Source of the DNA: an uncultured virus (IMG/VR IMGVR_UViG_3300037470_000488)
Taxonomy: Duplodnaviria; Heunggongvirae; Uroviricota; Caudoviricetes
Strand: one strand, 5' to 3'
IMG/VR virus record: IMGVR_UViG_3300037470_000488
DNA length: 20,000 nt
In this document: positions 2,947-20,000 of the stretch, piece by piece
How the letters are laid out: the number at the start of each line of letters is the position of its first letter
How positions within the stretch are numbered: position 1 is the stretch's first letter
Made by a program: the position numbers and the translations under genes
The notes under the pieces: model-generated
What the model saw: the letters and a program-made list of their open reading frames with translations, nothing else
Database searches by the model: none
Told to the model about the DNA's origin: nothing

Positions 2947-3866
2947 AGACCCCCGCCGCCGCCCTCAAGGACAAGCCACCCATCCTGTACGGCGCCGTCG
3001 CCCTCGCCGCCCTCTCCCTCGCCTGGTCCGTCTACTCGATCACCGACCTCATGAACTCCGGCCCCTACGGACTGACCGTCGCCCTCGCCGGCGACATCGG
3101 CTGGATCACCGTTCTGTGGGCCGAGGCACATGGCGTCACGATCGCCGGACGAACCTGGCCGGCCACGGTCGCAGGCTGGCTGATCGCTGTCGGAGTCGGA
3201 GTTCTCCTCGCCGTACACGGTGCCGCCGCCGCCGAGCACGCCACGGCGCAGGCGATTGCCGGCCCGTTCGTCGTCGCCGTGGGCAAGCTGGTCTGGCTAT
3301 TTGCACTCGCCTCGATGCGCGACCCAGCCGCCCTCACGACCGAGCAGGAGGCCGAGATCCACTCGGTGATGCGGGACTCCGAGTACGAGGCCCGGCTATA
3401 CGGCGCAGAGATCAAGCGGATCGAGCGAGCGGCAGACACGGAGATCGCCCGGATCAACGCCGAGGCGCGCACCGTGCTCGCCCGCGATGACGTCAACTTC
3501 GAAGTCGGTCTCGCGCGGGTCCGTAAGCGCGACGAGATCGCCCGCCGTACCCCGCTCGCGATCACGGCCGGATCTTCCCCCGAGCCGCCGCCCGAAGTGA
3601 TCGGCGAGCAGAACGAACAGCCCCCGAACAACCTGATCATGCTCGCGAACAACCCGGGCGAACACTCCGCGAACAACCCGTTGAACAGGACGAACGTTGT
3701 TCCCGACCGGCCGACCATCGCCGATCTCGTTCGCGAGCAGATCGCGAACACCGAGAACAACACCGACGCGATCAACAACGTCATGGCCGCCCGCCCCGAC
3801 GCCAACCGAGACAGCGTCGCCGCCGCCGTCCGCCGAGCCCGAAGGAAGGCAGGGCCGTACCTGTGA
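2943..3866 (+). CDS. SpdB-like (plasmid spread) membrane protein
   Basis: AGGAG RBS and GTG; about four TM segments, coiled coil, low-complexity linker, basic C-terminal helix; upstream of TraB as in Streptomyces conjugative elements. Confidence 0.65.
   Translation: MKTPAAALKDKPPILYGAVALAALSLAWSVYSITDLMNSGPYGLTVALAGDIGWITVLWAEAHGVTIAGRTWPATVAGWLIAVGVGVLLAVHGAAAAEHATAQAIAGPFVVAVGKLVWLFALASMRDPAALTTEQEAEIHSVMRDSEYEARLYGAEIKRIERAADTEIARINAEARTVLARDDVNFEVGLARVRKRDEIARRTPLAITAGSSPEPPPEVIGEQNEQPPNNLIMLANNPGEHSANNPLNRTNVVPDRPTIADLVREQIANTENNTDAINNVMAARPDANRDSVAAAVRRARRKAGPYL
3605..3759 (+). repeat. Cluster of CGAACA direct repeats (clt-like)
   Basis: Exact CGAACA at 3614, 3625, 3646, 3659, 3670, 3745 plus one-mismatch copies; CGCGAACAACCCG twice (3644, 3668). 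Confidence 0.65.
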
Positions 3867-4162
3867 CCAAGCCGACGCTCCTCCTCACCGCCACGGCCGG
3901 CCTGCTCGCCGCGATCGTGGCCGTCTCCTGGTTCCCCACCAGCCCCCTCCTTGCCGCCGTGGTCGGCTACACGGCCGTCGTCGGGACGCTCGCCCACGGC
4001 ATCGGCGCACCCGTCCTACGCACGATCGGCGCCACCATCGTCGTCCTCGCCGCCGCCGTCGCCCTGCTGCTCCGCGCCCTGCGCCACACCATCGACGTCG
4101 CCCTCTGGATCCTCACCGCAGGCACCGGAGCCGCCGTCCACACCGCCAAGGCCACCGCATGA
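3863..4162 (+). CDS. Small hydrophobic membrane protein (99 aa)
   Basis: Start and stop overlap both neighbours; largely hydrophobic. Confidence 0.7.
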   Translation: MTKPTLLLTATAGLLAAIVAVSWFPTSPLLAAVVGYTAVVGTLAHGIGAPVLRTIGATIVVLAAAVALLLRALRHTIDVALWILTAGTGAAVHTAKATA

Positions 4163-6096
4163 ACCAGACCCCGGTGTACACGCCGATCCCGATGACGATG
4201 ACGACCGACGGCGCAACAAAGACCTACAAAATTCCAGGTCAAGGCGTTGCGAAGCCGTCGTCGTCATCGTCGTCGTCATCTGTCTGGCAGCAGTGCACCC
4301 TGTGCGCGGGCCGCCTCGGGCAGTGGATGTCGCGCCGCCGCTACGAACTCGCTCCCGCAGGAGCGACCAGCGCCCTCACCGTCCTCGGCCTCGCCCAAGA
4401 CGGCATAGGGCCCGCCCTCACCTACGGTCTCCTGGCCGCAGGCTCCGGGGGCGCCGCCTTCCTCGGCCTCAAGCACAAGAACCAGGCCGTCACACACATC
4501 GGCGCCGGAGGATTCATCGCCCTGGCCGACATCACCACCGCAGTCGCGGCTGGCTTCACGTGGCCGACCGCGACCGCGTGGGTCCTCTCCACTGGCGCCG
4601 CATATGGGGTGTACGCGCCGTGGCTGACGACGCAGCGCAACGCCCGCCTCAAGCTGCACGTCGACACCGTCAAAGCAAAGGGCGCCATCCCGGAAGCCCT
4701 CGGCCTGGAGGCAGCCGACCCCGGACTCACCGGCGCCAGCCCGGAAGAGACCGCGCTACGCCGCGGCTTCCACGCCCTCACCGGTGCGGTCCCGTTCGCA
4801 GTGACCGCCTTCCACCGGATGGCCGATGGCTCGTGGTCATGCATCCTCAAAACGCCACCCGGACGGAACAACGCCCCTACCGCCCTGGTGAAGCGGGCCG
4901 CACAGTTGCAGGCCAACATGGGCGTGCCCGGACGGCTCACCCTCGCCGAAGGACCGGAAGCCAACGACCTGATCGTCAAGGTCGCCATGGCGGACACCCT
5001 CGCCGCAACGCTGGAAGTCACCGACACCGGCGTCACCACCTGCCGTAAGCCCGTCCTCCTCGGCCGCGACGAGGACGGCGCCGAATTCCTCCTCACGCTC
5101 CTGTACCGGCACACCCTCGTGGCCGGCGCCTCCGACTGGGGAAAGTCCGGCATCGTCAACCTCATCCTCAAGCGCCTCAACAGGTGCGACGACGTCGACC
5201 TGTACGGCATCGACATGAAACCCGGCGCCCCCGAACTCGGGCCGTGGCGCGACCGGATGAAGGCCCTCGCCACCAACGCCGAACAGTCGCGCGGACTGCT
5301 GGAATGGATTCGCGCCGAATGCGAACGCCGCGGCGCGATCCTCGCCGAACTGTCCCGCAAGGCCATGGCCGAAGGCCGCGGACCGGTCCGCAAGTGGGTG
5401 CCGGGGGAGCACGGCACCGCCATCTTCGTGGTCACCGACGAGCTTGCCGAACTCGTCCGGCAGGACAATGACTTGGCCACCCTGTACGAGTCGCTGCTCG
5501 CGATCGCCCGCTTCCTCGCCATCCAGTTCGTGTCCGCCACGCAGCAGCCCTCCCGGAAAGTGTTCGGCGGATCCACGGACGCCCGCGGCAACTACGCCAA
5601 CCGCCTCTCCACCCGCGCCGGCGAGGCCGGGCACGCCCCATTCATCTTCGGCTCCGGCTGCCAGTCCAAGGGCTGGCGGCCCGAAACCCTCGACCTGCCC
5701 GGCAAGTTCCTCGCACAGACCCCGGAGCACGACAGCCCGCGCGTGTACCGGGCCGAGTACGTGTCCGACACCGACATCGCCGCCGAGGTCGGCTTCTTCT
5801 ACTCCGACGTACGCGACACCGAACCCCAGCCCGCCATCACCGACGAGCCGTGGGTACAGGCGTTCGCACCGCTCTCCTTCCCCGACGGCAGCCAGGTCGG
5901 CAAGGACCAATGGCCCGACCTGTACCGGCTGTTCACCGCCCTGGACGGCGGCGCCACAAAAAAGGAACTGGCCCAGACTGCGCGCGTATCCCGGGACACG
6001 GCGATGCGCGCGATCGAAGAGTGGACCCGGCACGGGGTGTACGAGCGCCGCGACGGCCGCGCCATCCGCTACTACCTGCCGACGGAGGAGTCGTGA
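4159..6096 (+). CDS. traB: TraB-like FtsK/SpoIIIE conjugative DNA translocase
   Basis: N-terminal TM segments; HTLVAGASDWGKS (Walker A), GIDMKPG, FVVTDELAEL (Walker B), SATQQPS; C-terminal wHTH-like TKKELAQTARVSRDTAMRAIEEW. Confidence 0.85.
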   Translation: MNQTPVYTPIPMTMTTDGATKTYKIPGQGVAKPSSSSSSSSVWQQCTLCAGRLGQWMSRRRYELAPAGATSALTVLGLAQDGIGPALTYGLLAAGSGGAAFLGLKHKNQAVTHIGAGGFIALADITTAVAAGFTWPTATAWVLSTGAAYGVYAPWLTTQRNARLKLHVDTVKAKGAIPEALGLEAADPGLTGASPEETALRRGFHALTGAVPFAVTAFHRMADGSWSCILKTPPGRNNAPTALVKRAAQLQANMGVPGRLTLAEGPEANDLIVKVAMADTLAATLEVTDTGVTTCRKPVLLGRDEDGAEFLLTLLYRHTLVAGASDWGKSGIVNLILKRLNRCDDVDLYGIDMKPGAPELGPWRDRMKALATNAEQSRGLLEWIRAECERRGAILAELSRKAMAEGRGPVRKWVPGEHGTAIFVVTDELAELVRQDNDLATLYESLLAIARFLAIQFVSATQQPSRKVFGGSTDARGNYANRLSTRAGEAGHAPFIFGSGCQSKGWRPETLDLPGKFLAQTPEHDSPRVYRAEYVSDTDIAAEVGFFYSDVRDTEPQPAITDEPWVQAFAPLSFPDGSQVGKDQWPDLYRLFTALDGGATKKELAQTARVSRDTAMRAIEEWTRHGVYERRDGRAIRYYLPTEES

Positions 6097-11900: not shown

Positions 11901-12914
11901 ATGCGCATCCTCCTCACCGGCGCCGCGGGGTTCGTCGGCTCCCACGTCCTCGCTCACCTCCTCGCCAACACCGACGCCGAGATCGTCGTCCCCTGGACAC
12001 TCCGCCACCACGGCAACAGCCAGCGCCTCGCCGCCGCTATCGACCAGGCCCCCGAGCCCGGCGCCTGGAACGACCGCGTCACCACGTTCATGCACGACCT
12101 CGCCACTCCGATGCCGGCGACGCTTGTCGACGAGATCGGACCCGTCGACTACGTCTTGAACATCGCCTCCGAGTCCCACGTCGACCGCAGCATCTCCGAC
12201 CCGGCGCCGTTCATCCGGAACAACGTCGAGTTGATGCTGAACGTCCTCGACTACGCCCGCCAGGTCCGCCCGCGGATGGTGCTGCACATGGGCACCGATG
12301 AGGAGTACGGGCCCGCGTACGGGGACTACAAGCACCGCGAGTGGGACACGGTCCTCCCCTCGAACCCTTACAGCGCGTCGAAGGCGGCGCAGTCTGCGAT
12401 CGCCACCTCGTACTGGCGGACGTTCGGGGTGCCGGTCGTACTGACGCGGACGATGAACCTGATCGCGCCGGGCCAGGACGCGGAGAAGTTCGTGCCCACC
12501 GTGATCCGGAAGATCCTCGCTGGGGAGACAGTCCAGATCCACGCCAGCCCCGAAGGCGTGCCCGGCTCCCGGCACTGGATCGACGCCCGCGAGTTCGGCG
12601 CCGCCTGGCTGCACCTGCTGAACACGGTCGAGCCGCAGATGTACCCGGACGCCGACCGTCCGTCGATGTTCCACGTCGTCGGCGAGGAGCGGACGAACCT
12701 CCAGATCGCGCAGACGATCGCCGACCTCCTCGGCCGCCCGCTGCACTACGAGCTGGCCAGCTTCCATTCCAGCCGGCCAGGCCACGACCTCAGGTACGCA
12801 CTCGACGGATCGAAGCTGGCCGAGGCGGGCTGGGCGCCGGGCAGGTCGATCGAGGAGACCCTCTCCGACATCGTGAAGTGGTACGCCAACAACCCGGCAT
12901 GGCTCGCCGCATGA
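11901..12914 (+). CDS. rmlB: dTDP-glucose 4,6-dehydratase-like SDR
   Basis: TGAAGFVG, ASESHVDRSI, GTDEEYG, PYSASKAA (YxxxK), RPGHDLRYALD: RmlB signature motifs. Confidence 0.88.
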   Translation: MRILLTGAAGFVGSHVLAHLLANTDAEIVVPWTLRHHGNSQRLAAAIDQAPEPGAWNDRVTTFMHDLATPMPATLVDEIGPVDYVLNIASESHVDRSISDPAPFIRNNVELMLNVLDYARQVRPRMVLHMGTDEEYGPAYGDYKHREWDTVLPSNPYSASKAAQSAIATSYWRTFGVPVVLTRTMNLIAPGQDAEKFVPTVIRKILAGETVQIHASPEGVPGSRHWIDAREFGAAWLHLLNTVEPQMYPDADRPSMFHVVGEERTNLQIAQTIADLLGRPLHYELASFHSSRPGHDLRYALDGSKLAEAGWAPGRSIEETLSDIVKWYANNPAWLAA

Positions 12915-13135
12915 GCGCGCCCGCTGACGATGAGCGCCCATACAGGCAGCTCGCCCGCCTATCGCTCCAGCACTCGGCAGACCGACTGAACGCCATTCCC
13001 CAGGGACGGGTGGACACCGCCGAGATGCAGTGCCACGCCACCCTGGCCCAGGCAATCGCCAGTCTCGCCATGGCTCAGGCCCTCATCGAGATCGGCGACG
13101 CCCTACGCGCGCTGGGGGAGCAGTCAGATGGGTGA
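12911..13135 (+). CDS. Small helical hypothetical protein (74 aa)
   Basis: ATGA overlap with rmlB; stop overlaps next start. Confidence 0.6.
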   Translation: MSAPADDERPYRQLARLSLQHSADRLNAIPQGRVDTAEMQCHATLAQAIASLAMAQALIEIGDALRALGEQSDG

Positions 13136-13805
13136 CCTGTACCGCGCCGCGGTCATCCCGACGCGGGACCGTCACGACATGCTCGCCGACTGCATCAACT
13201 CCGTCGTGGACCAGGTGGACCGGGTCATCGTCATCGACAACCTCTCTGAACCGCCGATCGATCCGGAGCCGTGGCACGGCAAGGTCGGCGTGGTCGCGAT
13301 CCCGATCGACCCGCCGAACATCAGCACCCTGTGGAACGTCGGCATCGCCCTCGCCGACGCATCCGCCCACGCCGAGCAGGCCGCCCGGTGGGACATCGCC
13401 GTCCTCAACTCCGACGTCACCGTCCCGCCCGGCTGGATCGACGCACTCTCTACGGCAATGCGCTCCACCACCGCGGTCCTCGCCTACCCCGACCAGCACG
13501 GCGGCCACCGGCAAATCCTCCACACAAAGGCCGACCCGATCGACCTCCGGCAACGGATCACCGGCTACGCCTACCTGCTCCGCGGCGAAGCGGGTCTACG
13601 GCTCGACGAGTCCATGGCCTGGTGGTACAGCGACGACTCACTCGACTGGGAGGCGCGGGAGCAGGGAGGAGCGCTCCTCGTCCCGGGCCTGGCGGTCGAG
13701 CACCGCTGCCCGAACGGCTCGATGTACGAACGGCCAGAACTGAAGACGCAGGCCGGCCTCGACCGCGAAACCTTCCGTAAGAAGTGGGGCCGGACCCCAT
13801 GGTGA
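13128..13805 (+). CDS. Glycosyltransferase, GT2/GT-A fold
   Basis: AVIPTRDR, VIVIDN, WNVGI, AVLNSDV, WWYSDD motifs. Confidence 0.85.
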   Translation: MGDLYRAAVIPTRDRHDMLADCINSVVDQVDRVIVIDNLSEPPIDPEPWHGKVGVVAIPIDPPNISTLWNVGIALADASAHAEQAARWDIAVLNSDVTVPPGWIDALSTAMRSTTAVLAYPDQHGGHRQILHTKADPIDLRQRITGYAYLLRGEAGLRLDESMAWWYSDDSLDWEAREQGGALLVPGLAVEHRCPNGSMYERPELKTQAGLDRETFRKKWGRTPW

Positions 13806-13815
13806 GGAGCACCCG

Positions 13816-14631
13816 TTGAAGATTGCAGTAACCGGTGGTGCCGGATTCTTCGGCCGCGCCACCATCGAAGCCGCAGAGAACGCAGGGCACGACGTGTGGG
13901 CGTTCGACCGCACCCAAGGCATGGACATCCTCGGCAGCCTGGACGCGCTCGCCGACGCCGACACCGTCATTCACCTCGCGGGCGTCCTCGGCACGTCCGA
14001 GCTGTTCGACATGGCGGAGACCGCTATCCACGTCAACGTCATCGGCACGCTCCGCATCCTGGAGTGGTGCCGGGATCATGACGCCCGCTACGTCGGGGTG
14101 TCGATGCCGGACCCGTTCCCGTCGGTGTATACCGCGACGAAGGTCGCCGCGCGCAGGCTGACGACGGCATGGCATCACGCCTACGGCCTCCCCGTGTCGA
14201 CGGTCCGGGCGTTCAACGGCTACGGCCCCCACCAGCACTACGGGCCCGGCCACCCGCAGAAAATCCTGCCCACGTTCGCCCGCGCCGCGTGGGAGGGCCG
14301 GCCGTTGCCCATCTGGGGTGACGGTGAGCAGGCCATGGACCTCGTCCACGCGGACGATGTGGGGCAGATGCTTGTCGAGGCCACGGCGTTCGGGGATGAC
14401 CAGACGTTCGACGCGGGCACCGGCGTGGCGGTGACCGTGAGCGAGCTGGCGGAGTTCGTGCTGAAGGAGACCGGGTCGAAGGCGGGTGTGGAGCATCTGC
14501 CGATGCGTGCGGGTGAGGTGCCGGTGCAGATCACCGCGAAGGGTGAGGGCTGGGACCGGCTCGACTGGAAGCCCGAATTCTCGTGGGATCGGGTTGCTGA
14601 GACGGTGAGGTGGTACCGCGATGCCCGCTGA
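13816..14631 (+). CDS. NAD-dependent epimerase/reductase (extended SDR)
   Basis: GAGGAG RBS and TTG; VTGGAGFFG, IHLAG, YTATK, RAFNGYGP, IWGDGEQAMDLVHADD. Confidence 0.85.
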   Translation: MKIAVTGGAGFFGRATIEAAENAGHDVWAFDRTQGMDILGSLDALADADTVIHLAGVLGTSELFDMAETAIHVNVIGTLRILEWCRDHDARYVGVSMPDPFPSVYTATKVAARRLTTAWHHAYGLPVSTVRAFNGYGPHQHYGPGHPQKILPTFARAAWEGRPLPIWGDGEQAMDLVHADDVGQMLVEATAFGDDQTFDAGTGVAVTVSELAEFVLKETGSKAGVEHLPMRAGEVPVQITAKGEGWDRLDWKPEFSWDRVAETVRWYRDAR

Positions 14632-14905
14632 TCTACGCGAGCAGTATGCGGCTGCAGCCGAACGTTGCGGGTTCGATGTCTTCGATGCTGGCGAGGTTGC
14701 TGACGCTGTCCTCGCAATCCGTGACATTGAACTTGAGCGGGCAACGCGGCAGGTAGCAGCGGTCAAGGCCGTGACGGGCTGGCTGATGGAGGTCACCCGC
14801 AGCCCGGAACCAGACCCGGTACGCCGTGATGGGACACGCCGCATCGTGCACATGGTGAACCTTGCGCTGGACGACCCCGACGCCACCTTGGAGTACTACC
14901 AATGA
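14621..14905 (+). CDS. Hypothetical protein (94 aa), lower GC
   Basis: Overlaps both neighbours; more A/T-ending codons. Confidence 0.55.
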   Translation: MPADLREQYAAAAERCGFDVFDAGEVADAVLAIRDIELERATRQVAAVKAVTGWLMEVTRSPEPDPVRRDGTRRIVHMVNLALDDPDATLEYYQ

Positions 14906-15561
14906 CCGCTGATATCGCGATCGTGACCGCATGCTACGACGCCTACGACACAGTCAAGCCCGTCATGCCGCAGACCGGTGCGGATGTGGAGTGGATCCTC
15001 GTCACTGACACCGTGCCGGACGCCGAAGCTGCGCGCGGCTGGACGGTTGTGCACGAGCCGCGTCCGGATGTGCCGCCGAATCGTGCGGCGAAGGCGCCCA
15101 AGTTCGAGCCGTGGAAGTACACGGACGCCCCCGCGAGCATCTGGATCGACGCATCGTTCCGGGTCGTCTCCCCGGACTTCGCAGCTGCGGCGATGGGGTA
15201 CGCGAAGCCGATTGCGCAGTTCGTGCATCCGTGGCGGGACTGCCTGTTCGCGGAGGCGGTGGAGATTGCTGCGCTCGGCATGGACCCGGAGGGTGTGGCG
15301 GGGTGGCAGACGGCCCGGTACCGGGAGGCGGGGCATCCGGTGGGTTGGGGGTTGTGGGCGTCGGGTGTGATCGTGCGGCGGCATACGGCGGCTGTTCGGC
15401 GGATGGGTGCGGCGTGGGCGCGGGAGGTGGCGGGCGGGTCGGCGCGGGATCAGGTGTCGCAGCCGCACGTCCTGCGGGAAGCCCGACTGCGGCCCGCTTC
15501 TCTGCCGGGGACGCATCTGGCGAACGCTTGGCTCAAGTACGAGGGAAGCGGACGGCACTGA
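14902..15561 (+). CDS. Putative glycosyltransferase, DUF616-like
   Basis: IVTACYDAYD, LVTD, AKAPKFEP, SIWIDAS, HPWRDCLFAE, RDQVS motifs. Confidence 0.7.
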   Translation: MTADIAIVTACYDAYDTVKPVMPQTGADVEWILVTDTVPDAEAARGWTVVHEPRPDVPPNRAAKAPKFEPWKYTDAPASIWIDASFRVVSPDFAAAAMGYAKPIAQFVHPWRDCLFAEAVEIAALGMDPEGVAGWQTARYREAGHPVGWGLWASGVIVRRHTAAVRRMGAAWAREVAGGSARDQVSQPHVLREARLRPASLPGTHLANAWLKYEGSGRH

Positions 15562-15839
15562 TGAGCGAGCAGACACCGAGCGTGGGCCGGATCGTCCACT
15601 ATCAGAGCTACGGCACCCCGGGCGGCGAGTACACCTCCCAGTGCCGGGCCGCGATCGTCGCCGCCGTCTACAGCCTCGACAACCCACACCCGGACCTCGA
15701 GGTACACACCGAGGCCGAAGGCGCCGAGTGGGTGGCGCTCGCGGTGCTGAACCCGAGCGGCATGTTCTTCAACGACGCGTGCCACGACGAGCTGCGCAAG
15801 CAGGGCGGCACGTGGCATTGGCCGGAGCGTGTCGGATGA
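15561..15839 (+). CDS. Conserved small phage hypothetical protein
   Basis: PSVGRIVHY…RAAIV…GTWHWPER pattern; TGATG coupling. Confidence 0.75.
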   Translation: MSEQTPSVGRIVHYQSYGTPGGEYTSQCRAAIVAAVYSLDNPHPDLEVHTEAEGAEWVALAVLNPSGMFFNDACHDELRKQGGTWHWPERVG

Positions 15840-16273
15840 GACTGGAGATCGGCGGCGGGAAACTCCTGCCAGCAGGCTGGACCAACCTCGACCCCAACCA
15901 CGGCACCGGCGACTGGCGGCGCCTCGCACAAGACACGCCATGGCCCACCGGCGACCACACCGTAGAGGCCATGCGCGCGAGCCACGTCATGGAGCACATC
16001 CCCGCCGGTGACCCGCGCATCACGGTTCTCAACGAAGCCCACCGCGTCCTGCGCTCCGGCGCCGTGTTCGAGATCCGCGTACCCAACGCCCTGTCCGGAA
16101 CCTGGCACGCCTACGCCGACCCGACGCACGTCTCCTTCTGGTGCGTGGAGTCGTTCCACTACCTCGACGGTTCGAAGGCCGCCCACGCCGACTACGGACT
16201 CCTGCCGTGGAAGACGATCGAACTCCGCATCCAAGGCGACAACGAAATCCTGTGGAAGGGGACGCCGCGGTGA
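15836..16273 (+). CDS. Class I SAM-dependent methyltransferase
   Basis: RLEIGGG, ASHVMEH, NEAHRVLRSGA, DPTH motifs. Confidence 0.82.
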   Translation: MRLEIGGGKLLPAGWTNLDPNHGTGDWRRLAQDTPWPTGDHTVEAMRASHVMEHIPAGDPRITVLNEAHRVLRSGAVFEIRVPNALSGTWHAYADPTHVSFWCVESFHYLDGSKAAHADYGLLPWKTIELRIQGDNEILWKGTPR

Positions 16274-16842
16274 CCGGACCGGACCCGGTGGTGTCCGTCG
16301 TGGTTCCGTACCACGCGGCCCGCGTGAAGAACGGCATGCTCAAACGCGCGGCCGACTCCGTCAACGGGCAGACCGCACCCCACCACCTGATCGCCGTCGA
16401 AGACACCCAGCGCCAGGGCGCCGCAGCGACCCGGCAAGGGGGCCTCGACCAAGTCACCACACCGTGGACTGCGTTCCTCGACAGCGACGACGAACTCGAC
16501 CCCACCCACCTGGCGCAGCTCCTCGCCTGCGCCACCGAGACGGGCGCCGACTACGTGTACCCGTGGTTCCGCGTGAAGGGCGGCCGCGACCCGTTCCCCA
16601 TGTTCTTCGGCCGCCCCTGGGATGACGCTCACCCGCACTCGACGACGATCACCATCCTCGTCCGCACCGAACTCGCCCAGCAGGTCGGGTTCCGCAACGT
16701 GGCCGGTGAGGACTTCACGTTCACGAAGGACTGCGTCATCGCCGGGGCAAAGATCATCCACCACCCGGCCAGAACCTGGACCTGGTGGCATCATCAGTCC
16801 AATAGCAGCGGCATTCCGGGGCGCGGAGATGCGAAAACGTGA
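16270..16842 (+). CDS. Glycosyltransferase, GT2
   Basis: VSVVVP, SVNGQT, GAAATRQGGL, AFLDSDD (DxD), GEDF. Confidence 0.85.
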   Translation: MTGPDPVVSVVVPYHAARVKNGMLKRAADSVNGQTAPHHLIAVEDTQRQGAAATRQGGLDQVTTPWTAFLDSDDELDPTHLAQLLACATETGADYVYPWFRVKGGRDPFPMFFGRPWDDAHPHSTTITILVRTELAQQVGFRNVAGEDFTFTKDCVIAGAKIIHHPARTWTWWHHQSNSSGIPGRGDAKT

Positions 16843-16895
16843 TTAGCCACTGGTAGCATGAGAACACAACAGGTAACACAACCTGAGGAGTTCTC

Positions 16896-17480
16896 GTGCC
16901 ACGCAAGACGCGCCCTTTGGCCGAAAGGTTCTGGGAGAAGGTCCGCAAGGGAGAAGGCTGCTGGGAGTGGACTGCGGCCACAGTCCAGGGCTATGGAGTG
17001 ATTCAGATGGGACGCGGCCTCGGCACAAAGCGGGCTCACATCCTGTCCTACGAACTCTCGATTGGCCCCGTGAACGGACGTTGGGTTCTACACAAGTGCG
17101 ACAACCCTCCCTGCGTTCGACCCGACCATCTCTTCCTCGGCGATGTTGGAGACAACAACCGGGACATGATGGCCAAGGGGCGCAGCTGGCAGCAAAAGAA
17201 GACTCGGTGCCCGCACGGCCATGAATACACAGAAGAGAACACGTACTACACAGAGGGTCGGCGCCGATGCCGAGAATGCAAGCGCATCAAGAGGCGCGTG
17301 AAGCGCACCGAAGAAGAGGCGCAGCAGATGCGCTTGAACATGGGAGCGCCCCGACGTAACCGGACACACTGTCCGCAGGGCCACCCATACGACGAGCAGA
17401 ACACCCGTCGGACATCGCAGGGGCACCGGGCCTGCCGGACATGTGAGCGGGAGTGCAGAAGCAGAAACCGCAACCGATGA
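16896..17480 (+). CDS. Free-standing HNH endonuclease with two Zn-binding repeats
   Basis: ERFWEKV…CWEW…GYG…AHILSYEL…VLHKCDNPPCVRPDHLFLG…NNRDM; two CPxGHxY…NT…RxCRxC repeats; GAGGAG RBS. Confidence 0.88.
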   Translation: MPRKTRPLAERFWEKVRKGEGCWEWTAATVQGYGVIQMGRGLGTKRAHILSYELSIGPVNGRWVLHKCDNPPCVRPDHLFLGDVGDNNRDMMAKGRSWQQKKTRCPHGHEYTEENTYYTEGRRRCRECKRIKRRVKRTEEEAQQMRLNMGAPRRNRTHCPQGHPYDEQNTRRTSQGHRACRTCERECRSRNRNR

Positions 17481-17524
17481 GCAGCGGCCGACCCGACCGA
17501 GGCGACGCCCGCCACCGCTGACCA

Positions 17525-17557
17525 CCGGAAGCCGCCGCCCCCGCCACCGGTGACAAT
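17525..17557 (+). promoter_or_regulatory. Putative late promoter motif, copy 3
   Basis: CCGGAA-N21-GACAAT-N6-ATG(17564). Confidence 0.6.
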
Positions 17558-17563
17558 CCGCCC

Positions 17564-19768
17564 ATGGGCACCAACGACCGGGCATCTGTAGCGGCACGCG
17601 CCGCCGCCCTCCTCGGCGCCCAACTCACCCCACGCTGGCAACCACAGCCCCACCAAATCCCACCCGACGGCAACTGGACGGGATGGCTGCTCATGGCCGG
17701 CCGAGGAGCCGGCAAGTCGAAAGCCTGCGCCGAGTACGTACGCCAGCACGTCAACGGCCCACCCTGCCTACCCGGCGCCGTCCCGCACTGGATCTCCATC
17801 ATCGCGCCCACCCTCGGCGACGGCGTCACCTCCATGTACGAAGGGCCCGGCGGCATCCGCAACGCCGACCCCGGCGCCCGCCTCGTCCAAGCACCCGGCG
17901 GAACCGTCAGCCGCTGGCCCAACGGCAGCCAGGCAAAGCTGTACGGATCACACACACCCGAGGACGTCGAACGCCTCCGGGCCGGCGGTAACTCGTGCGT
18001 CCGGGAAGGCACGCTCGTCCGCACCGAGGACGGGCCACGCCCCATCGAGGACATCCTTCCTGGCGACCGTGTCTGGACCCGCAACGGACTACGGCGTGTG
18101 CTGCACGTCTGGGACAACGGTGTGAAGCCGGTGCGGAGATACGAGCACCAGGCCGGGCATGTCTGGCTTACCCCGGACCATGAGGTATGGACCACAAACG
18201 GGTGGAAACAAGTCTCACTCGTCCAGAGGAACGATACTGTTTTCACATGGGGAAACACGGAGATTCCATCCAGTACGCCGGAGTTCACTGGATACCGAGG
18301 AAAGACGGCTACTACCAGAACAAACACCGAGGATTGCTGCACCGGTACGTGTGGGCTCAAGCACACGGGCCCATCCCAAAGGGGATGCACGTGCACCACA
18401 AGAACCACGTCAAGTCAGACAACCGGCTGGAGAACCTGGTACTCCTCCGCGCCGGTGAACACTGGGCCGAACACGACCACGAGCGCGGCGGCTCGAACTG
18501 GCACAGCAAGGGCGGCACGGGATCGTGGCTCACCGCTGAGTACCGGGAGTACACCTGCGAGCAGTGTGGGGAGCGGTTCAAGTCGCGGACCAGGGCCGTC
18601 GTTCCGAAGTGGTGCTCAGACAGATGTCGAGGCTTTGCGACCCGCGCTCGTTCACGAGAGGAGCGGGTGTGCTGCGTGTGCGGCTCACAGTTCACCTGCC
18701 TCAAGTTCAACCCCACCCGCACCTGTTCGCGCCGGTGCACTGCGACCTACGCCTACACGCGACGTGGCCAGGGTGTATGACCTGACGGTTGAGCACGATC
18801 ACGAGTTCTTCGCGGGTGACCTCCTCGTCGCGAACTGCCTCGCCGTCCTCGAAGAGTTCGCGACCTGGCGGTACATGGAGCAGACCTACGATCAGCTCCG
18901 CTTCGGCCTGCGCTCCGGGCCGCACCCGCACTGGATCGCCGCGACCACTCCGAAGCCGCGACCGCTGCTGAAGCGCATGCTCGCAGGAGAGATCCGCGGT
19001 GTCGTCCACACGCACGCCACGATGTACGACAACCCCCACCTCGAACAGACCGTCAAAGACGCCCTCGAAGAGACCTACGCCGGCACCGACATCGGCGCGC
19101 AGGAACTCCAGGGAAGGCTGATCGACGAGGCCGCTGACGCGCTGTGGACGCGCGCCACGTTGGAGGGAACCCGGGTACGGCCGGATGAGGTCCCGGACCT
19201 CACCCGAATCTGCGTGGGCGTCGACCCGTCCGGCGGTGCTGGCGAGCAGGGCATCGTCGTCGTCGGCAAGTCCGGGCTCGTGATCCCCGGCGACGGCGGA
19301 CGGCCGCAGCACCACGGCTACGTCCTCGACGACCGGTCATGCAGGCTGTCACCAGACCAGTGGGGGCGCCGCGCGGTGCAGGCCGCGATCGACTGGGAAG
19401 CCGACGAGATCGTGGCCGAGACAAACTACGGCGGCGCCATGTGCGTGGCCACGCTGCGCACCGCGGCCGAGGCGCTCGGCGTGGACATCCCCATCCGCAC
19501 GGTCACAGCGACGCGCGGCAAAGTCGTCCGCGCGCAGCCCGTCGCCGCACTCGCCGCGCAGGGCCGCTGGCACATGGCCGGAGTCTTCCCCGAGCTGGAG
19601 GACCAACTCGCGACCTGGTACCCCGAGCTGGGCTGGTCACCGGACCGGCTCGACGCAATGGTGTGGCCGGCATGGCAGATGAAGCTGGTGGGTACGGCAG
19701 CGCGGGGTCAGGGTTCGTTGGGTGGGGATCTGGCCAGAAAGCAGATCGTTGGCGGGCGGCTACGGTGA
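17564..19768 (+). CDS. terL: Terminase large subunit containing an intein (734-aa precursor, about 454 aa spliced)
   Basis: PHQ, LMAGRGAGKS (Walker A), LAVLEE (Walker B), ATTP, DNPHL, VGVDPS, AETNYGG, SPDRLDA. Confidence 0.92.
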   Translation: MGTNDRASVAARAAALLGAQLTPRWQPQPHQIPPDGNWTGWLLMAGRGAGKSKACAEYVRQHVNGPPCLPGAVPHWISIIAPTLGDGVTSMYEGPGGIRNADPGARLVQAPGGTVSRWPNGSQAKLYGSHTPEDVERLRAGGNSCVREGTLVRTEDGPRPIEDILPGDRVWTRNGLRRVLHVWDNGVKPVRRYEHQAGHVWLTPDHEVWTTNGWKQVSLVQRNDTVFTWGNTEIPSSTPEFTGYRGKTATTRTNTEDCCTGTCGLKHTGPSQRGCTCTTRTTSSQTTGWRTWYSSAPVNTGPNTTTSAAARTGTARAARDRGSPLSTGSTPASSVGSGSSRGPGPSFRSGAQTDVEALRPALVHERSGCAACAAHSSPASSSTPPAPVRAGALRPTPTRDVARVYDLTVEHDHEFFAGDLLVANCLAVLEEFATWRYMEQTYDQLRFGLRSGPHPHWIAATTPKPRPLLKRMLAGEIRGVVHTHATMYDNPHLEQTVKDALEETYAGTDIGAQELQGRLIDEAADALWTRATLEGTRVRPDEVPDLTRICVGVDPSGGAGEQGIVVVGKSGLVIPGDGGRPQHHGYVLDDRSCRLSPDQWGRRAVQAAIDWEADEIVAETNYGGAMCVATLRTAAEALGVDIPIRTVTATRGKVVRAQPVAALAAQGRWHMAGVFPELEDQLATWYPELGWSPDRLDAMVWPAWQMKLVGTAARGQGSLGGDLARKQIVGGRLR
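17996..18835 (+). mobile_element. Intein in terL (280 aa)
   Basis: Block A CVREGTLVRT; IEDILPGDRV; block B LTPDHEVWT; blocks F/G VYDLTVEHDHEFFAGDLLVAN; +1 Cys. Removal gives RLRAGGNS|CLAVLEE. Confidence 0.92.
18247..18780 (+). CDS. HNH homing endonuclease nested in an alternative frame within the intein (177 aa)
   Basis: DGYY…LLHRYVWAQAHGPIPKGMHVHHKNHVKSDNRLENLVLL plus two CxxC…CSxxC fingers; TACTGT 6 nt upstream of ATG 18247; alternative start 18187. Confidence 0.88.
   Translation: MGKHGDSIQYAGVHWIPRKDGYYQNKHRGLLHRYVWAQAHGPIPKGMHVHHKNHVKSDNRLENLVLLRAGEHWAEHDHERGGSNWHSKGGTGSWLTAEYREYTCEQCGERFKSRTRAVVPKWCSDRCRGFATRARSREERVCCVCGSQFTCLKFNPTRTCSRRCTATYAYTRRGQGV
19734..19766 (+). promoter_or_regulatory. 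Putative late promoter motif, copy 4
   Basis: CCAGAA-N21-TACGGT-N7-ATG(19774). Confidence 0.55.
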
Positions 19769-19773
19769 CGGGC

Positions 19774-20000
19774 ATGGAGACTTGGCTGCTGCTGCTCGTG
19801 ATGGCGCTCGCGGTGTACCGGCTCACGCGGCTCGTTGTGGCTGACACGTTTCCGCCGGTGTTGTGGTTGCGTGACCGGCTCGTCGGCGGCTGGCGCCCGT
19901 TGACGGAGAAGGAGCGGGAGCAGCAGGTGGCCGACGCCCGCGCGTGGGAGGACGAGGAGAAGCCTTGGACAAGCCGGTTTTCGGTTCAGATGATCGATGA
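19774..20000 (+). CDS. DUF1360-like membrane protein (3' truncated by window)
   Basis: METWLLLLVMALAVYRLTRLVVADTFPP…; frame open to window end. Confidence 0.7.
   Translation, partial: METWLLLLVMALAVYRLTRLVVADTFPPVLWLRDRLVGGWRPLTEKEREQQVADARAWEDEEKPWTSRFSVQMID

Follow-up and report, generated by a model that had tools for sequence, protein, structure and literature searches.

Where is the nuclease of an intein whose interior translates into no recognizable domain? The question is raised by the terminase large subunit gene (terL) of an uncultured virus, IMG/VR record IMGVR_UViG_3300037470_000488, in a stretch of 20,000 nucleotides referred to here as the window. A first-pass annotation, made from the sequence alone, placed an HNH nuclease in another frame of the same strand between the intein splicing blocks, and proposed a dual-coding selfish element whose nuclease is translated apart from the host protein. 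The analysis described here makes it highly probable that two overlapping genes together form a homing intein here, with an HNH nuclease that is separately translated and probably cuts or nicks intein-less terL alleles. The parts of this account with direct support are the anatomy of the locus, conservation in the HNH frame, avoidance of stops in the intein frame, and the presence or absence of the intein in close alleles.

The terL precursor and its intein

The precursor (17564..19768; all features described here lie on the plus strand) is a 734-aa reading frame consisting of N-extein, intein and C-extein. A Pfam scan of this frame finds Terminase_6N, Terminase_6C and, over its cut-off, Hint_2 (E 2.8e-8), and no nuclease domain. 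PHROG terminase large subunit families also match. The N-extein (17564..17995, 144 aa) reads to an end at ...RLRAGGNS and is 92-95% identical to the N-exteins of the related terL loci L086, L087 and L089. The C-extein (18836..19768), which is recognized by its Terminase_6N/6C matches, begins with the +1 Cys followed by LAVLEEF, read here as the ATPase Walker B motif. The intein boundaries are ...RAGGNS/CVREGTLV... and ...LLVAN/CLAVLEEF (splice junctions are marked by a slash).

The intein itself (17996..18835) has 280 residues, from Cys1 to Asn280, and is precisely missing in L087. It matches Hint_2 (E 7.4e-9), with 34.7-36.6 bits against a cut-off of 28.4, and scores 19-23 bits with the Intein_splicing profile, under the cut-off of 35.8. 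The intein HMMs used here were built from three sequences. Four columns are invariant in an alignment of 49 inteins (C1, T59, H62 and N280) and the window has all of them. Block B is Thr59-x-x-His62. The penultimate residue of an intein is usually His; here it is Ala, and the same is true of L006, L012 and L069.

The N-terminal splicing domain (17996..18250; blocks A and B, CVREGTLV ... LTPDHEVW) shares 82-92% identity with its counterparts in L086 and L089. In the predicted model of the intein frame it forms beta strands, with pLDDT of 92-98 for residues 1-80 and 73 for residues 81-90. The C-terminal splicing domain (18766..18835; blocks F and G, RVYDLTVEHDHEFFAGDLLVAN) is modelled with pLDDT of 85-97 from about residue 250. 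This block is identical to that of L086 at 23/23 positions and to that of L089 at 100% by tblastn. The splicing blocks are complete, as the first-pass annotation had stated. A group I or group II intron was also considered at this locus and rejected, as there are no Rfam matches at E up to 1 within 17400-19900.

A nuclease gene in a second frame

The nuclease ORF (18247..18780) encodes 177 aa plus a TGA stop, in a frame two bases ahead of, or one base behind, the terL/intein frame. At full length this second ORF is 18187..18780, which leaves ATG 18187 as an alternative farther upstream. The earlier choice of 18247 agrees with the start position of the HNH relatives. The ORF matches HNH_3 (PF13392) with 60.2 bits against a cut-off of 24.8 (E 1.4e-16) and PHROG 15471 (E 6.5e-30). 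Scanning both frames with HMMs thus gives Hint_2 in the terL frame and HNH_3 in the other. Among 50 aligned sequences the invariant columns are H50, H51, N59, N63, H72, C104, C107, C123 and C127, and C142, C145, C160 and C164 are nearly so. The window keeps every invariant His, Asn and Cys plus the near-invariant Cys residues, and the two zinc ribbons appear in a predicted model with pLDDT of 91.3. Profile match, Cys columns and model all bear out the earlier reading of an HNH domain with two zinc fingers.

What kind of HNH nuclease is it? The sole solved protein matched by the family profile is I-HmuI (PDB 1U3E; E 1.5e-4). Foldseek, too, ranks I-HmuI first for the model (probability 0.99 over 114 columns), with an E of 0.024 and a TM score of 0.35 that make the overall likeness weak; at E 0.001 Foldseek returns no match. 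The Pfam family Endonuclease_7 is not matched at E up to 0.01, and T4 endonuclease VII is absent among the Foldseek matches listed.

The end of the gene ties it to the intein. Its TGA stop (18778..18780) is built from the last base of TAT and the GA of GAC in the block-F motif VYDL, exactly as first noted and as can be read directly in the sequence. In 62 of 62 loci the HNH stop falls within 29 nt of the block-F match.

The same layout in relatives

Searching IMG/VR with the HNH alignment found 206 relatives, from which 80 loci were kept and 51 are non-redundant. An HNH ORF one base behind an open intein frame is the arrangement in 71/80. The other nine comprise one locus nested in the other phase, one with a closed intein frame and seven with a free-standing nuclease. 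None of the 80 has the nuclease in frame with the intein. The layout recurs in three cultured phages, namely Tetrasphaera phage TJE1, Acinetobacter phage Highwayman (locus GC 0.40) and Rhodobacteraceae phage LS06-2018-MD07, and, with the same phase, in L086, L089 and L108, whose terL genes are closely related to that of the window. Locus GC ranges from 0.22 to 0.68 across the HNH relatives, and terminase Pfam families are found in 30 of the 41 spanning ORFs scanned. No near-identical DNA exists in 50,697 phage records.

Empty alleles and the function of the nuclease

Is this element mobile? Among 26 related terL loci the intein occupies this site in three and is absent from 23, and among 16 loci with at least 84% C-extein identity it is present in two. 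The search for intein-less alleles that the first-pass annotation had in mind has therefore succeeded, and its best product is L087, a precise empty allele (...RAGGNSCLAVLEEF..., site GGNS/CLAV) with exteins 91-92% identical to those of the window. L087 and either the window or L089 make a ready pair of empty and filled alleles. Such patchiness may have arisen through loss of the intein as much as through its gain. In a quick, unrooted HNH tree the nucleases of inteins at the ATPase-domain sites form one group (SH-aLRT 85; none of 500 shuffles is as clustered).

A mechanism consistent with these observations would begin with translation straight through terL, yielding a precursor of about 80 kDa. 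Its Hint halves (17996-18250 and 18766-18835), connected through some 170 disordered linker residues, would then excise the intein and leave an active terminase. The separate gene from ATG 18247 to TGA 18780 would supply the I-HmuI-like, double zinc-ribbon HNH nuclease, which probably cuts or nicks intein-less terL near ...GGNS/CLAV.... Repair after this putative cleavage would copy the whole intein into the empty allele.

What if the nuclease is not a homing enzyme at all, but works with the terminase in cutting DNA and is kept for the benefit of the phage? It would then resemble the HNH proteins encoded beside terminase genes. The HNH relatives sit almost only in terL, as the 30/41 spanning ORFs with terminase families illustrate, and the best phage matches of the nuclease include free-standing HNH genes near genome starts. 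Discussing a terL intein of its own, the brucellaphage paper (PMC4422536) suggests a functional terminase link, for which it cites Kala et al. 2014. Nevertheless, a packaging helper is unlikely. In 23/26 related terL loci the site carries no intein and no such HNH, which shows that packaging does not require either. Furthermore, the nuclease travels with the intein and ends at block F, its closest solved relative is a homing endonuclease, and HNH groups follow the insertion site.

How the nuclease may be translated

Returning to a separately made homing nuclease, one prediction concerns its start codon. An own start at the homologous place is found in 46 of the 51 non-redundant loci (41 ATG, 3 GTG and 2 TTG), mostly within 30 codons past a stop in the HNH frame, and is absent from five by the rule applied. 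Together with the patchy presence of the intein among the 26 alleles, this favours the dual-coding element first proposed. Shine-Dalgarno-like pairing of -5 kcal/mol or better precedes 39% of the relatives' starts and 19% of control positions (p 0.005). The window ATG at 18247 has a weak and badly spaced match (-3.8 kcal/mol; GAGG 17 nt upstream). A scan of 16700-19900 for sigma-70-like promoters, a search whose scope does not extend to actinobacterial promoter types, found none (shuffles expect 0.2). In view of the start codons in the relatives, the nuclease is probably made from its own start, apart from the intein polypeptide.

A different route would be a programmed -1 frameshift out of the intein frame, producing a fusion of N-extein, N-intein and HNH that ends at the block-F TGA. 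The window does contain a canonical and correctly phased slippery heptamer exactly where the HNH domain begins (G_GGA_AAC, 18250-18256), and 71/80 loci have their nuclease in the -1 phase. However, such a heptamer is present at the junction in only 5/51 loci, its rate there (0.0048 per codon) is close to that elsewhere in the same ORFs (0.0043), and in the window it simply spells the codons Met-Gly-Lys. An HNH-frame stop just upstream leaves only a few codons for slippage in most loci, and 41/51 have their own ATG. Frameshifting is therefore very unlikely to be how this protein is made.

One frame selected, the other kept open

The dual-coding stretch is the intein-frame linker (18251..18765). 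It had been described as about 178 codons of Thr/Ser/Gly/Ala-rich sequence with no domain, and composition (T 17.6%, S 13.6%, A 11.9%, G 10.8%), Pfam and the model agree: for about residues 89-249 pLDDT is 41-58 and secondary structure is absent. At E<1e-5 the linker frame resembles that of none of 50 relatives.

The intein frame is free of stops across the overlap in the window, as reported earlier. How surprising is this? When the HNH ORF is shuffled with synonymous codons (n=2000), 5.5% of shuffles are stop-free in the intein frame, with a mean of 1.9 stops. GC in this stretch is 63%, so that the window on its own departs only marginally from chance (P 0.055), and any stronger argument has to come from the relatives. 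In these, the intein frame has no stops in 51/51 non-redundant loci, where shuffles expect 0.6-5, and the third frame has stops in all 51. For the low-GC loci L002 and L060 none of 2000 shuffles is open in the intein frame. Summed over the 51 loci, stop avoidance reaches a log10 p of -78.9, a figure that overstates the case because the loci are related and not independent.

Conservation follows the other frame. Pairs among the 51 loci are alike at E<1e-5 in 1275/1275 cases in the HNH frame versus 161/1275 in the linker frame, and the window is alike to 50/50 relatives in the HNH frame versus 0/50 in the linker frame. The first-pass annotation had asked for tests of both points, and both hold: the HNH frame is conserved and the intein frame avoids stops. 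Against L089, its closest intein-bearing relative, the window has 124 differences in 530 bases. Read in the HNH frame they are 64 synonymous and 60 non-synonymous, and in the linker frame 34 synonymous and 90 non-synonymous; by HNH codon position 1, 2 and 3 they number 38, 21 and 65. Selection therefore acts in the HNH frame, and the intein frame in the overlap is kept stop-free and nothing more.

Could the nuclease ORF instead be a relic, carried by a vertically inherited and sometimes lost intein and open only through the scarcity of stops in GC-rich DNA? Even the third frame is open in 3.3% of the window shuffles, which shows how little an open frame costs at 63% GC. In addition, HNH expression is putative, and the HNH region is far more diverged among relatives than its flanks. 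Nevertheless, every invariant catalytic and zinc-binding residue is kept, the window-L089 substitutions concentrate at HNH third positions, a protein divergence of 26-61% has not disrupted the ORF in L086, L089 or L108, and both frames are open in low-GC relatives. A relic is thus highly improbable.

Finally, the idea that two compensating indels in sequencing or assembly shifted an ordinary in-frame HNH intein has next to no chance of being right: it has in its favour only that the window derives from a metagenome assembly, whereas contigs of three other runs (X3 over 18106-19380, X4 over 18257-19030 and X5 over 18062-18380) are identical at the frame junctions, with no other letters, no gaps and no indels listed inside the intein, L086, L089, L108 and 71/80 IMG/VR loci share the phase, and the HNH frame has a stop and then an ATG, as expected of a gene in its own right. 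The first-pass annotation had also considered a decayed copy among in-frame homologues, and the opposite was found, with 0/80 in frame.

Comparison with known systems

Arrangements of this kind are already in print, one from a brucellaphage terL (2015), others from inteins of actinophages (2025 preprint) and from dnaX of cyanobacteria (2026 preprint). The caution in the first-pass annotation that non-canonical actinophage inteins may have been described was well placed. As set out in the passages of the actinophage preprint on these elements (10.1101/2025.01.02.630785), a nuclease ORF in 'reading frame 3' lies between the splicing blocks of inteins, many of them in terL; the in-frame stretch is unstructured, and a free-standing nuclease gene is proposed to have invaded the intein. 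The nuclease phase and the unstructured intein-frame stretch are as in the window. However, the preprint places its nuclease in IPR004211, with a match to T4 endonuclease VII (1E7D), whereas that of the window is HNH_3, a comparison of descriptions. That survey covers PhagesDB only, whereas the HNH relatives of the window span GC 0.22 to 0.68. Gordonia and Mycobacterium are absent from the ten commonest organisms in a tblastn search of 50,697 phage records with the window HNH. The terL of Gordonia phage Forza was tried as a link to the preprint phages and set aside, as its 573 aa (1719 nt annotated) are too short for an intein.

The Brucella phage Tb/Pr terL intein, with its out-of-frame HNH ORF8 (GenBank JN939331; Virol J 2015, PMC4422536), occupies the same terL position as the window intein, five residues before the acidic pair (...NRAD/C...HN/CVIIDDP). 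However, ORF8 is in the other phase, starts 823 bases past the terL start and encodes a Pfam HNH (PF01844) nuclease with its HNH motif at the C-terminal end, not HNH_3. ORF8 and the window HNH align over 37 residues at 38% (E 3e-4).

Another parallel is the ShiLan domain, an HNH hidden out of frame within the DNA methylase gene of a mycobacteriophage (Genes 2025, PMC11855218). Like the window nuclease it combines an HNH with zinc fingers, here flanking it (195 aa), and occupies the third frame of a host gene that is open across it; the article reports a disjunct distribution and treats its mode of translation as an open question. Splicing domains were not found there, so its authors take the insert to be retained in the protein, whereas the window HNH sits within an intact intein. 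The cyanobacterial dnaX intein of the 2026 preprint shares the overlapping out-of-frame nuclease and the sporadic occurrence, and secondary invasion of a mini-intein is proposed for it. In that case, however, the host gene is cellular and not a phage terL. The HNH, reading-frame and endonuclease-domain passages of Kelley et al. 2016 (PMC5050341) do not mention an out-of-frame nuclease.

The closest solved match, I-HmuI, is the HNH homing endonuclease of Bacillus phage SPO1; as noted above, the match is weak overall. It does not have a pair of zinc ribbons like the one seen in the HNH model of the window. I-HmuI is encoded in a group I intron, not in an intein.

A possible composite family

What might the whole family represent? 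One tentative reading, which we hold to be possible and somewhat less than evenly probable, is an old and successful composite in which a mini-intein carries an overprinted HNH_3/double zinc-ribbon gene in a constant -1 phase, with its stop inside block F and with independent turnover of the nuclease cassette. On this reading, the composite would have moved among at least three terminase families and several insertion sites, in phages of 22-68% GC. The window and L086 are 53% identical in HNH, 23/23 in the C-terminal splicing block and 93-95% in the exteins, and free-standing and nested HNH copies are interleaved in the quick unrooted tree. A family-level account of such a composite was not found in the literature searched.

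The value of the window is mainly that of one more well-supported case, with a filled and an empty allele. It is a clean natural example of two proteins encoded by the same DNA with unlike constraints, as one frame evolves under ordinary protein selection and the other needs only to be stop-free. Splicing and cutting encoded as separate genes also bear on how inteins acquire nucleases (the 'splicing first' model). There is a warning for annotation as well: gene callers report only terL, and consequently the overlapping nuclease is missed.

Why is the phase so constant? Shuffles of these Lys/Arg/Glu-rich HNH proteins expect 0.6-5 stops in the intein frame and 3-33 in the other. Perhaps the -1 phase is kept as the cheap one, because fewer stops are expected there.

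The overprinted HNH gene

The terL gene of the window is a 734-codon ORF on the plus strand (17564-19768, by ORF scan). Its frame contains Terminase_6N, Terminase_6C and Hint domains according to Pfam. The intein (17996-18835, +) extends from Cys1 to Asn280 (18833-18835), which is followed by the +1 Cys (...RAGGNS|CVREGTLV...LLVAN|CLAVLEEF). It is inserted in the ATPase domain, five residues ahead of the acidic pair. On the same strand, one base behind the terL frame, is an inner ORF of 197 codons (18187-18780) that matches HNH_3 (Pfam, E 1.4e-16) and PHROG 15471 'HNH endonuclease' (E 6.5e-30). Its TGA stop (18778-18780, +) is composed of the block-F codons TAT-GAC. The intein-frame translation of the overlap (the linker, 18251-18765) is rich in Thr (17.6%), Ser (13.6%), Ala (11.9%) and Gly (10.8%), and a Pfam scan of the terL frame found no nuclease family. 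The first-pass annotation had reported splicing blocks in terL, a Thr/Ser/Gly/Ala-rich linker devoid of a domain, an HNH in another frame of the same strand and a stop built from block F. All of this was recovered, and both the observation and its interpretation as a dual-coding selfish element stand.

Structure predictions fit this arrangement. The HNH ORF model, built from an alignment of 50 family members, is confident (mean pLDDT 91.3). In the intein model, beta strands are predicted at both ends, residues 1-80 (pLDDT 92-98) and approximately 250-280 (85-97). Residues 81-90 score 73, and residues 89-249 have a pLDDT of 41-58 and no secondary structure. Exactly four columns are invariant among 49 aligned intein-frame sequences, and these are the splicing residues C1, T59, H62 and N280. 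The HNH alignment retains H50, H51, N59, N63, H72 and cysteine pairs, all of which are present in the window. Among solved proteins, the HNH family profile matches one, I-HmuI, a homing endonuclease (E 1.5e-4). Foldseek likewise ranks I-HmuI first for the HNH model (probability 0.99), but this match is weak overall (E 0.024, TM 0.35) and Foldseek returned nothing at E 0.001 or better.

Probable translation of the HNH ORF

How might the HNH ORF be translated? One possibility is a -1 ribosomal frameshift out of the intein frame. A slippery heptamer, G_GGA_AAC (18250-18256), does lie in the correct phase for a -1 shift from the intein into the HNH frame. However, only 5 of 51 non-redundant family loci have a slippery heptamer at the junction, which is the background rate, and G_GGA_AAC itself is not conserved in relatives. 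Therefore, independent initiation, as predicted from sequence, is the better reading, and the heptamer is probably just the codons Met-Gly-Lys. In most loci the conserved domain is preceded, at a distance of no more than 30 codons, by a stop in the HNH frame, with a start following that stop at the homologous place. A rule-based assignment for the 51 loci gave ATG in 41, GTG in three, TTG in two and none in five. Shine-Dalgarno-like pairing of -5 kcal/mol or stronger precedes 39% of starts versus 19% of control positions (p 0.005). The pairing at the window's own HNH start is weak (-3.8 kcal/mol), and a scan of 16700-19900 found no sigma-70-like promoter.

A family of nested HNH genes

Searching phage records with the HNH (tblastn) revealed matches inside the annotated terL of Tetrasphaera phage TJE1 and Acinetobacter phage Highwayman. 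Each of these terL genes stays open across its intein, and the HNH ORF runs one base behind, ending at block F. Rhodobacteraceae phage LS06-2018-MD07 has an identical layout. Searching IMG/VR with these three HNHs, aligned together, retrieved 206 relatives, of which the best 80 were retained. Every frame was scanned with two splicing-half HMMs made from the three inteins, and misses were checked by eye. Among these 80, the HNH is nested in an intein in the window's phase in 71, nested in another phase in one (L043), intact beside a stop-closed intein frame in one (L038) and free-standing in seven. None has the nuclease in frame with the intein, which contradicts the alternative that homologues are all in-frame and this copy has decayed. 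Of the 71, 59 have both splicing halves in one stop-free frame, five have the N half only (C-terminal blocks being visible by eye in four: L010, L031, L032 and L068), five have a divergent intein recognised by eye and two are interrupted by a contig end. In all 62 loci with both halves, the HNH stop (TGA 46, TAA 15, TAG 1) and the start of the block-F match are within 29 nt of each other.

The spanning ORFs of 41 of the 51 non-redundant loci were scanned, the set leaving aside the window, L001, L002 and seven cut or near-duplicate loci. A terminase family (Terminase_6N/6C, Terminase_3/3C or GpA_ATPase) was found in 30 of the 41, and an HNH family in the intein frame in none. Most of the inteins are inserted in the terL nuclease domain (...DH|C...N|CxDAxRY). 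The inteins of L003, L010, L017 and L031 are one residue ahead of the acidic pair.

Some members are unusual. L043 (1800-2870; GC 0.68) is the only one in which the HNH leads the intein frame by one base, and its intein ends are intact (...NDHA|CFPAGT ... FVVAN|CDALRY). L038 (1-1000) has an intact HNH ORF across which the intein frame is full of stops, with blocks F/G and the C-extein (...FIVHN|CYDAARY) downstream in the intein frame. Its contig begins just upstream of the HNH, placing the N half out of view. L038 may be a split intein or a 'fractured' terL, the nuclease gene separating the halves. The terL frames of L080 (3-3362) and L025 (3-3131) seemingly contain two inteins each: L080 has a LAGLIDADG_3 match (residues 228-271) in addition to its HNH-bearing intein, and L025 has two stretches of splicing sequence.

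Selection on the two frames

Across the 51 loci, all 1275 pairs are alike in the HNH frame (E<1e-5) versus 161 of 1275 in the linker frame. For pairs that include the window the counts are 50/50 and 0/50. Stop avoidance was assessed by permuting synonymous codons inside each HNH ORF, leaving protein and codon usage unchanged. The intein frame has no stops in 51/51 loci, whereas the shuffles predict 0.6-5. The conservation and stop avoidance that the first-pass annotation proposed to check are therefore both evident. The chance of a stop-free intein frame is 0.055 for the window and below 1 in 2000 for L002 and L060; the log10 values sum to -78.9 over loci, a sum that the relatedness of the loci inflates. 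Stops occur in the third frame of 51/51 loci (shuffles expect 3-33). This suggests that the window's phase may be the usual one because stops are cheaper to avoid there. Other phases are used by L043, Brucella phage Tb and Caulobacter phage RW.

The window and L089, a close terL relative, have 124 differences over 530 overlapping bases. These are 64 synonymous and 60 non-synonymous in the HNH frame, versus 34 and 90 in the linker frame, and they fall 38, 21 and 65 times at HNH codon positions 1, 2 and 3.

A sequencing artefact, in the form of compensating indels at the HNH boundaries, is ruled out: the window was assembled from sediment metagenome data, and contigs from three other runs (X3, 18106-19380; X4, 18257-19030; X5, 18062-18380), assembled contigs rather than raw reads, are identical to it, together spanning both frame junctions with no other letters or gaps and no indel listed within the intein.

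Mobility

With the C-extein as query, two genome loci and 25 IMG/VR loci were recovered, 26 of them informative. The intein is present at the window's site in three (L086, which is a contig of Streptomyces caniscabiei; L089; and L108), and the exteins directly adjoin in the other 23. The intein-less alleles that the first-pass annotation proposed to look for exist, and in L087 the site is precisely empty (...RAGGNSCLAVLEEF...). Among the 16 loci with C-extein identity of at least 84%, two have the intein.

Identity between the window and L086 depends on the region: 137/144 residues in the N-extein, 70/85 in the N-terminal splicing domain, 91/171 in the HNH frame, 77/162 in the linker frame, 23/23 in the C-terminal splicing block and 288/310 in the C-extein. 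Nucleotide identity is 53-66% for window 18247-18780 versus L086 2430-2960, and 83-94% in the splicing ends. The same region is likewise far more diverged than its flanks in L089 (2415-2960). The nuclease part has thus remained intact despite diverging much faster than its flanks. This sequence pattern suggests cassette exchange or fast evolution within a conserved intein scaffold. In a quick unrooted tree, the HNHs of all six ATPase-domain inteins fall together in a single group (SH-aLRT 85), and the seven free-standing HNH genes require at least three state changes.

L104 (1043-2833) is a window-family terL (C-extein 71% identical) lacking the ATPase-site intein. Instead, its terL nuclease domain is interrupted by a related intein, inside which an HNH is nested in the window's -1 phase.

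Relation to known systems

The first-pass annotation had cautioned that non-canonical actinophage inteins may already be described. Indeed, inteins with separate-frame nucleases are a class described by Gosselin et al. (2025 preprint), who report for actinophage terL a 'frame 3' gene that is endonuclease VII-like and propose that free-standing nuclease genes invaded inteins. The ShiLan paper (PMC11855218) describes an HNH hidden in the third frame of a gene that lacks an intein, and a cyanobacterial dnaX intein likewise has an out-of-frame nuclease according to a 2026 preprint. An out-of-frame nuclease in an intein is therefore an already described kind of element, of which the window is a well-supported further member. 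In the open literature searched, no paper was found to describe the HNH_3/zinc-ribbon family across phage groups.

In Brucella phage Tb, the terL record is annotated 'intein present' with an overlapping HNH ORF, and the intein has the same terL position as the window's. However, its HNH belongs to a different Pfam family, uses another phase and is barely alignable. In the DNA polymerase gene of Caulobacter phage RW (L114, 2185-2841), an intein with an N half like the window's (HMM E 2e-11) encloses a 219-codon ORF in another frame. Its phase is unlike that of the terL family, and Pfam assigns it no family at E up to 0.01.

Neighbouring genes

A second, free-standing HNH gene (16896-17480, +) lies just upstream of terL (HNH_3, E 6e-6; PHROG 826, E 2.3e-48). 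It is missing from L086 and L087, which have 35-137 bases there versus about 710-780 in the window, and a homologue (65% identical) occurs in only one of 27 related loci, L093. It looks like a further mobile nuclease gene adjoining terL. Farther upstream of the packaging genes, the regions 3697-6096 and 11901-16842 (+) contain an FtsK/SpoIIIE-like ORF together with two genes each of the NAD-dependent epimerase/dehydratase and family-2 glycosyltransferase kinds. Such genes are unusual cargo beside a terminase. The terL-adjoining glycosyltransferase gene is common to the window, L086 and L087.
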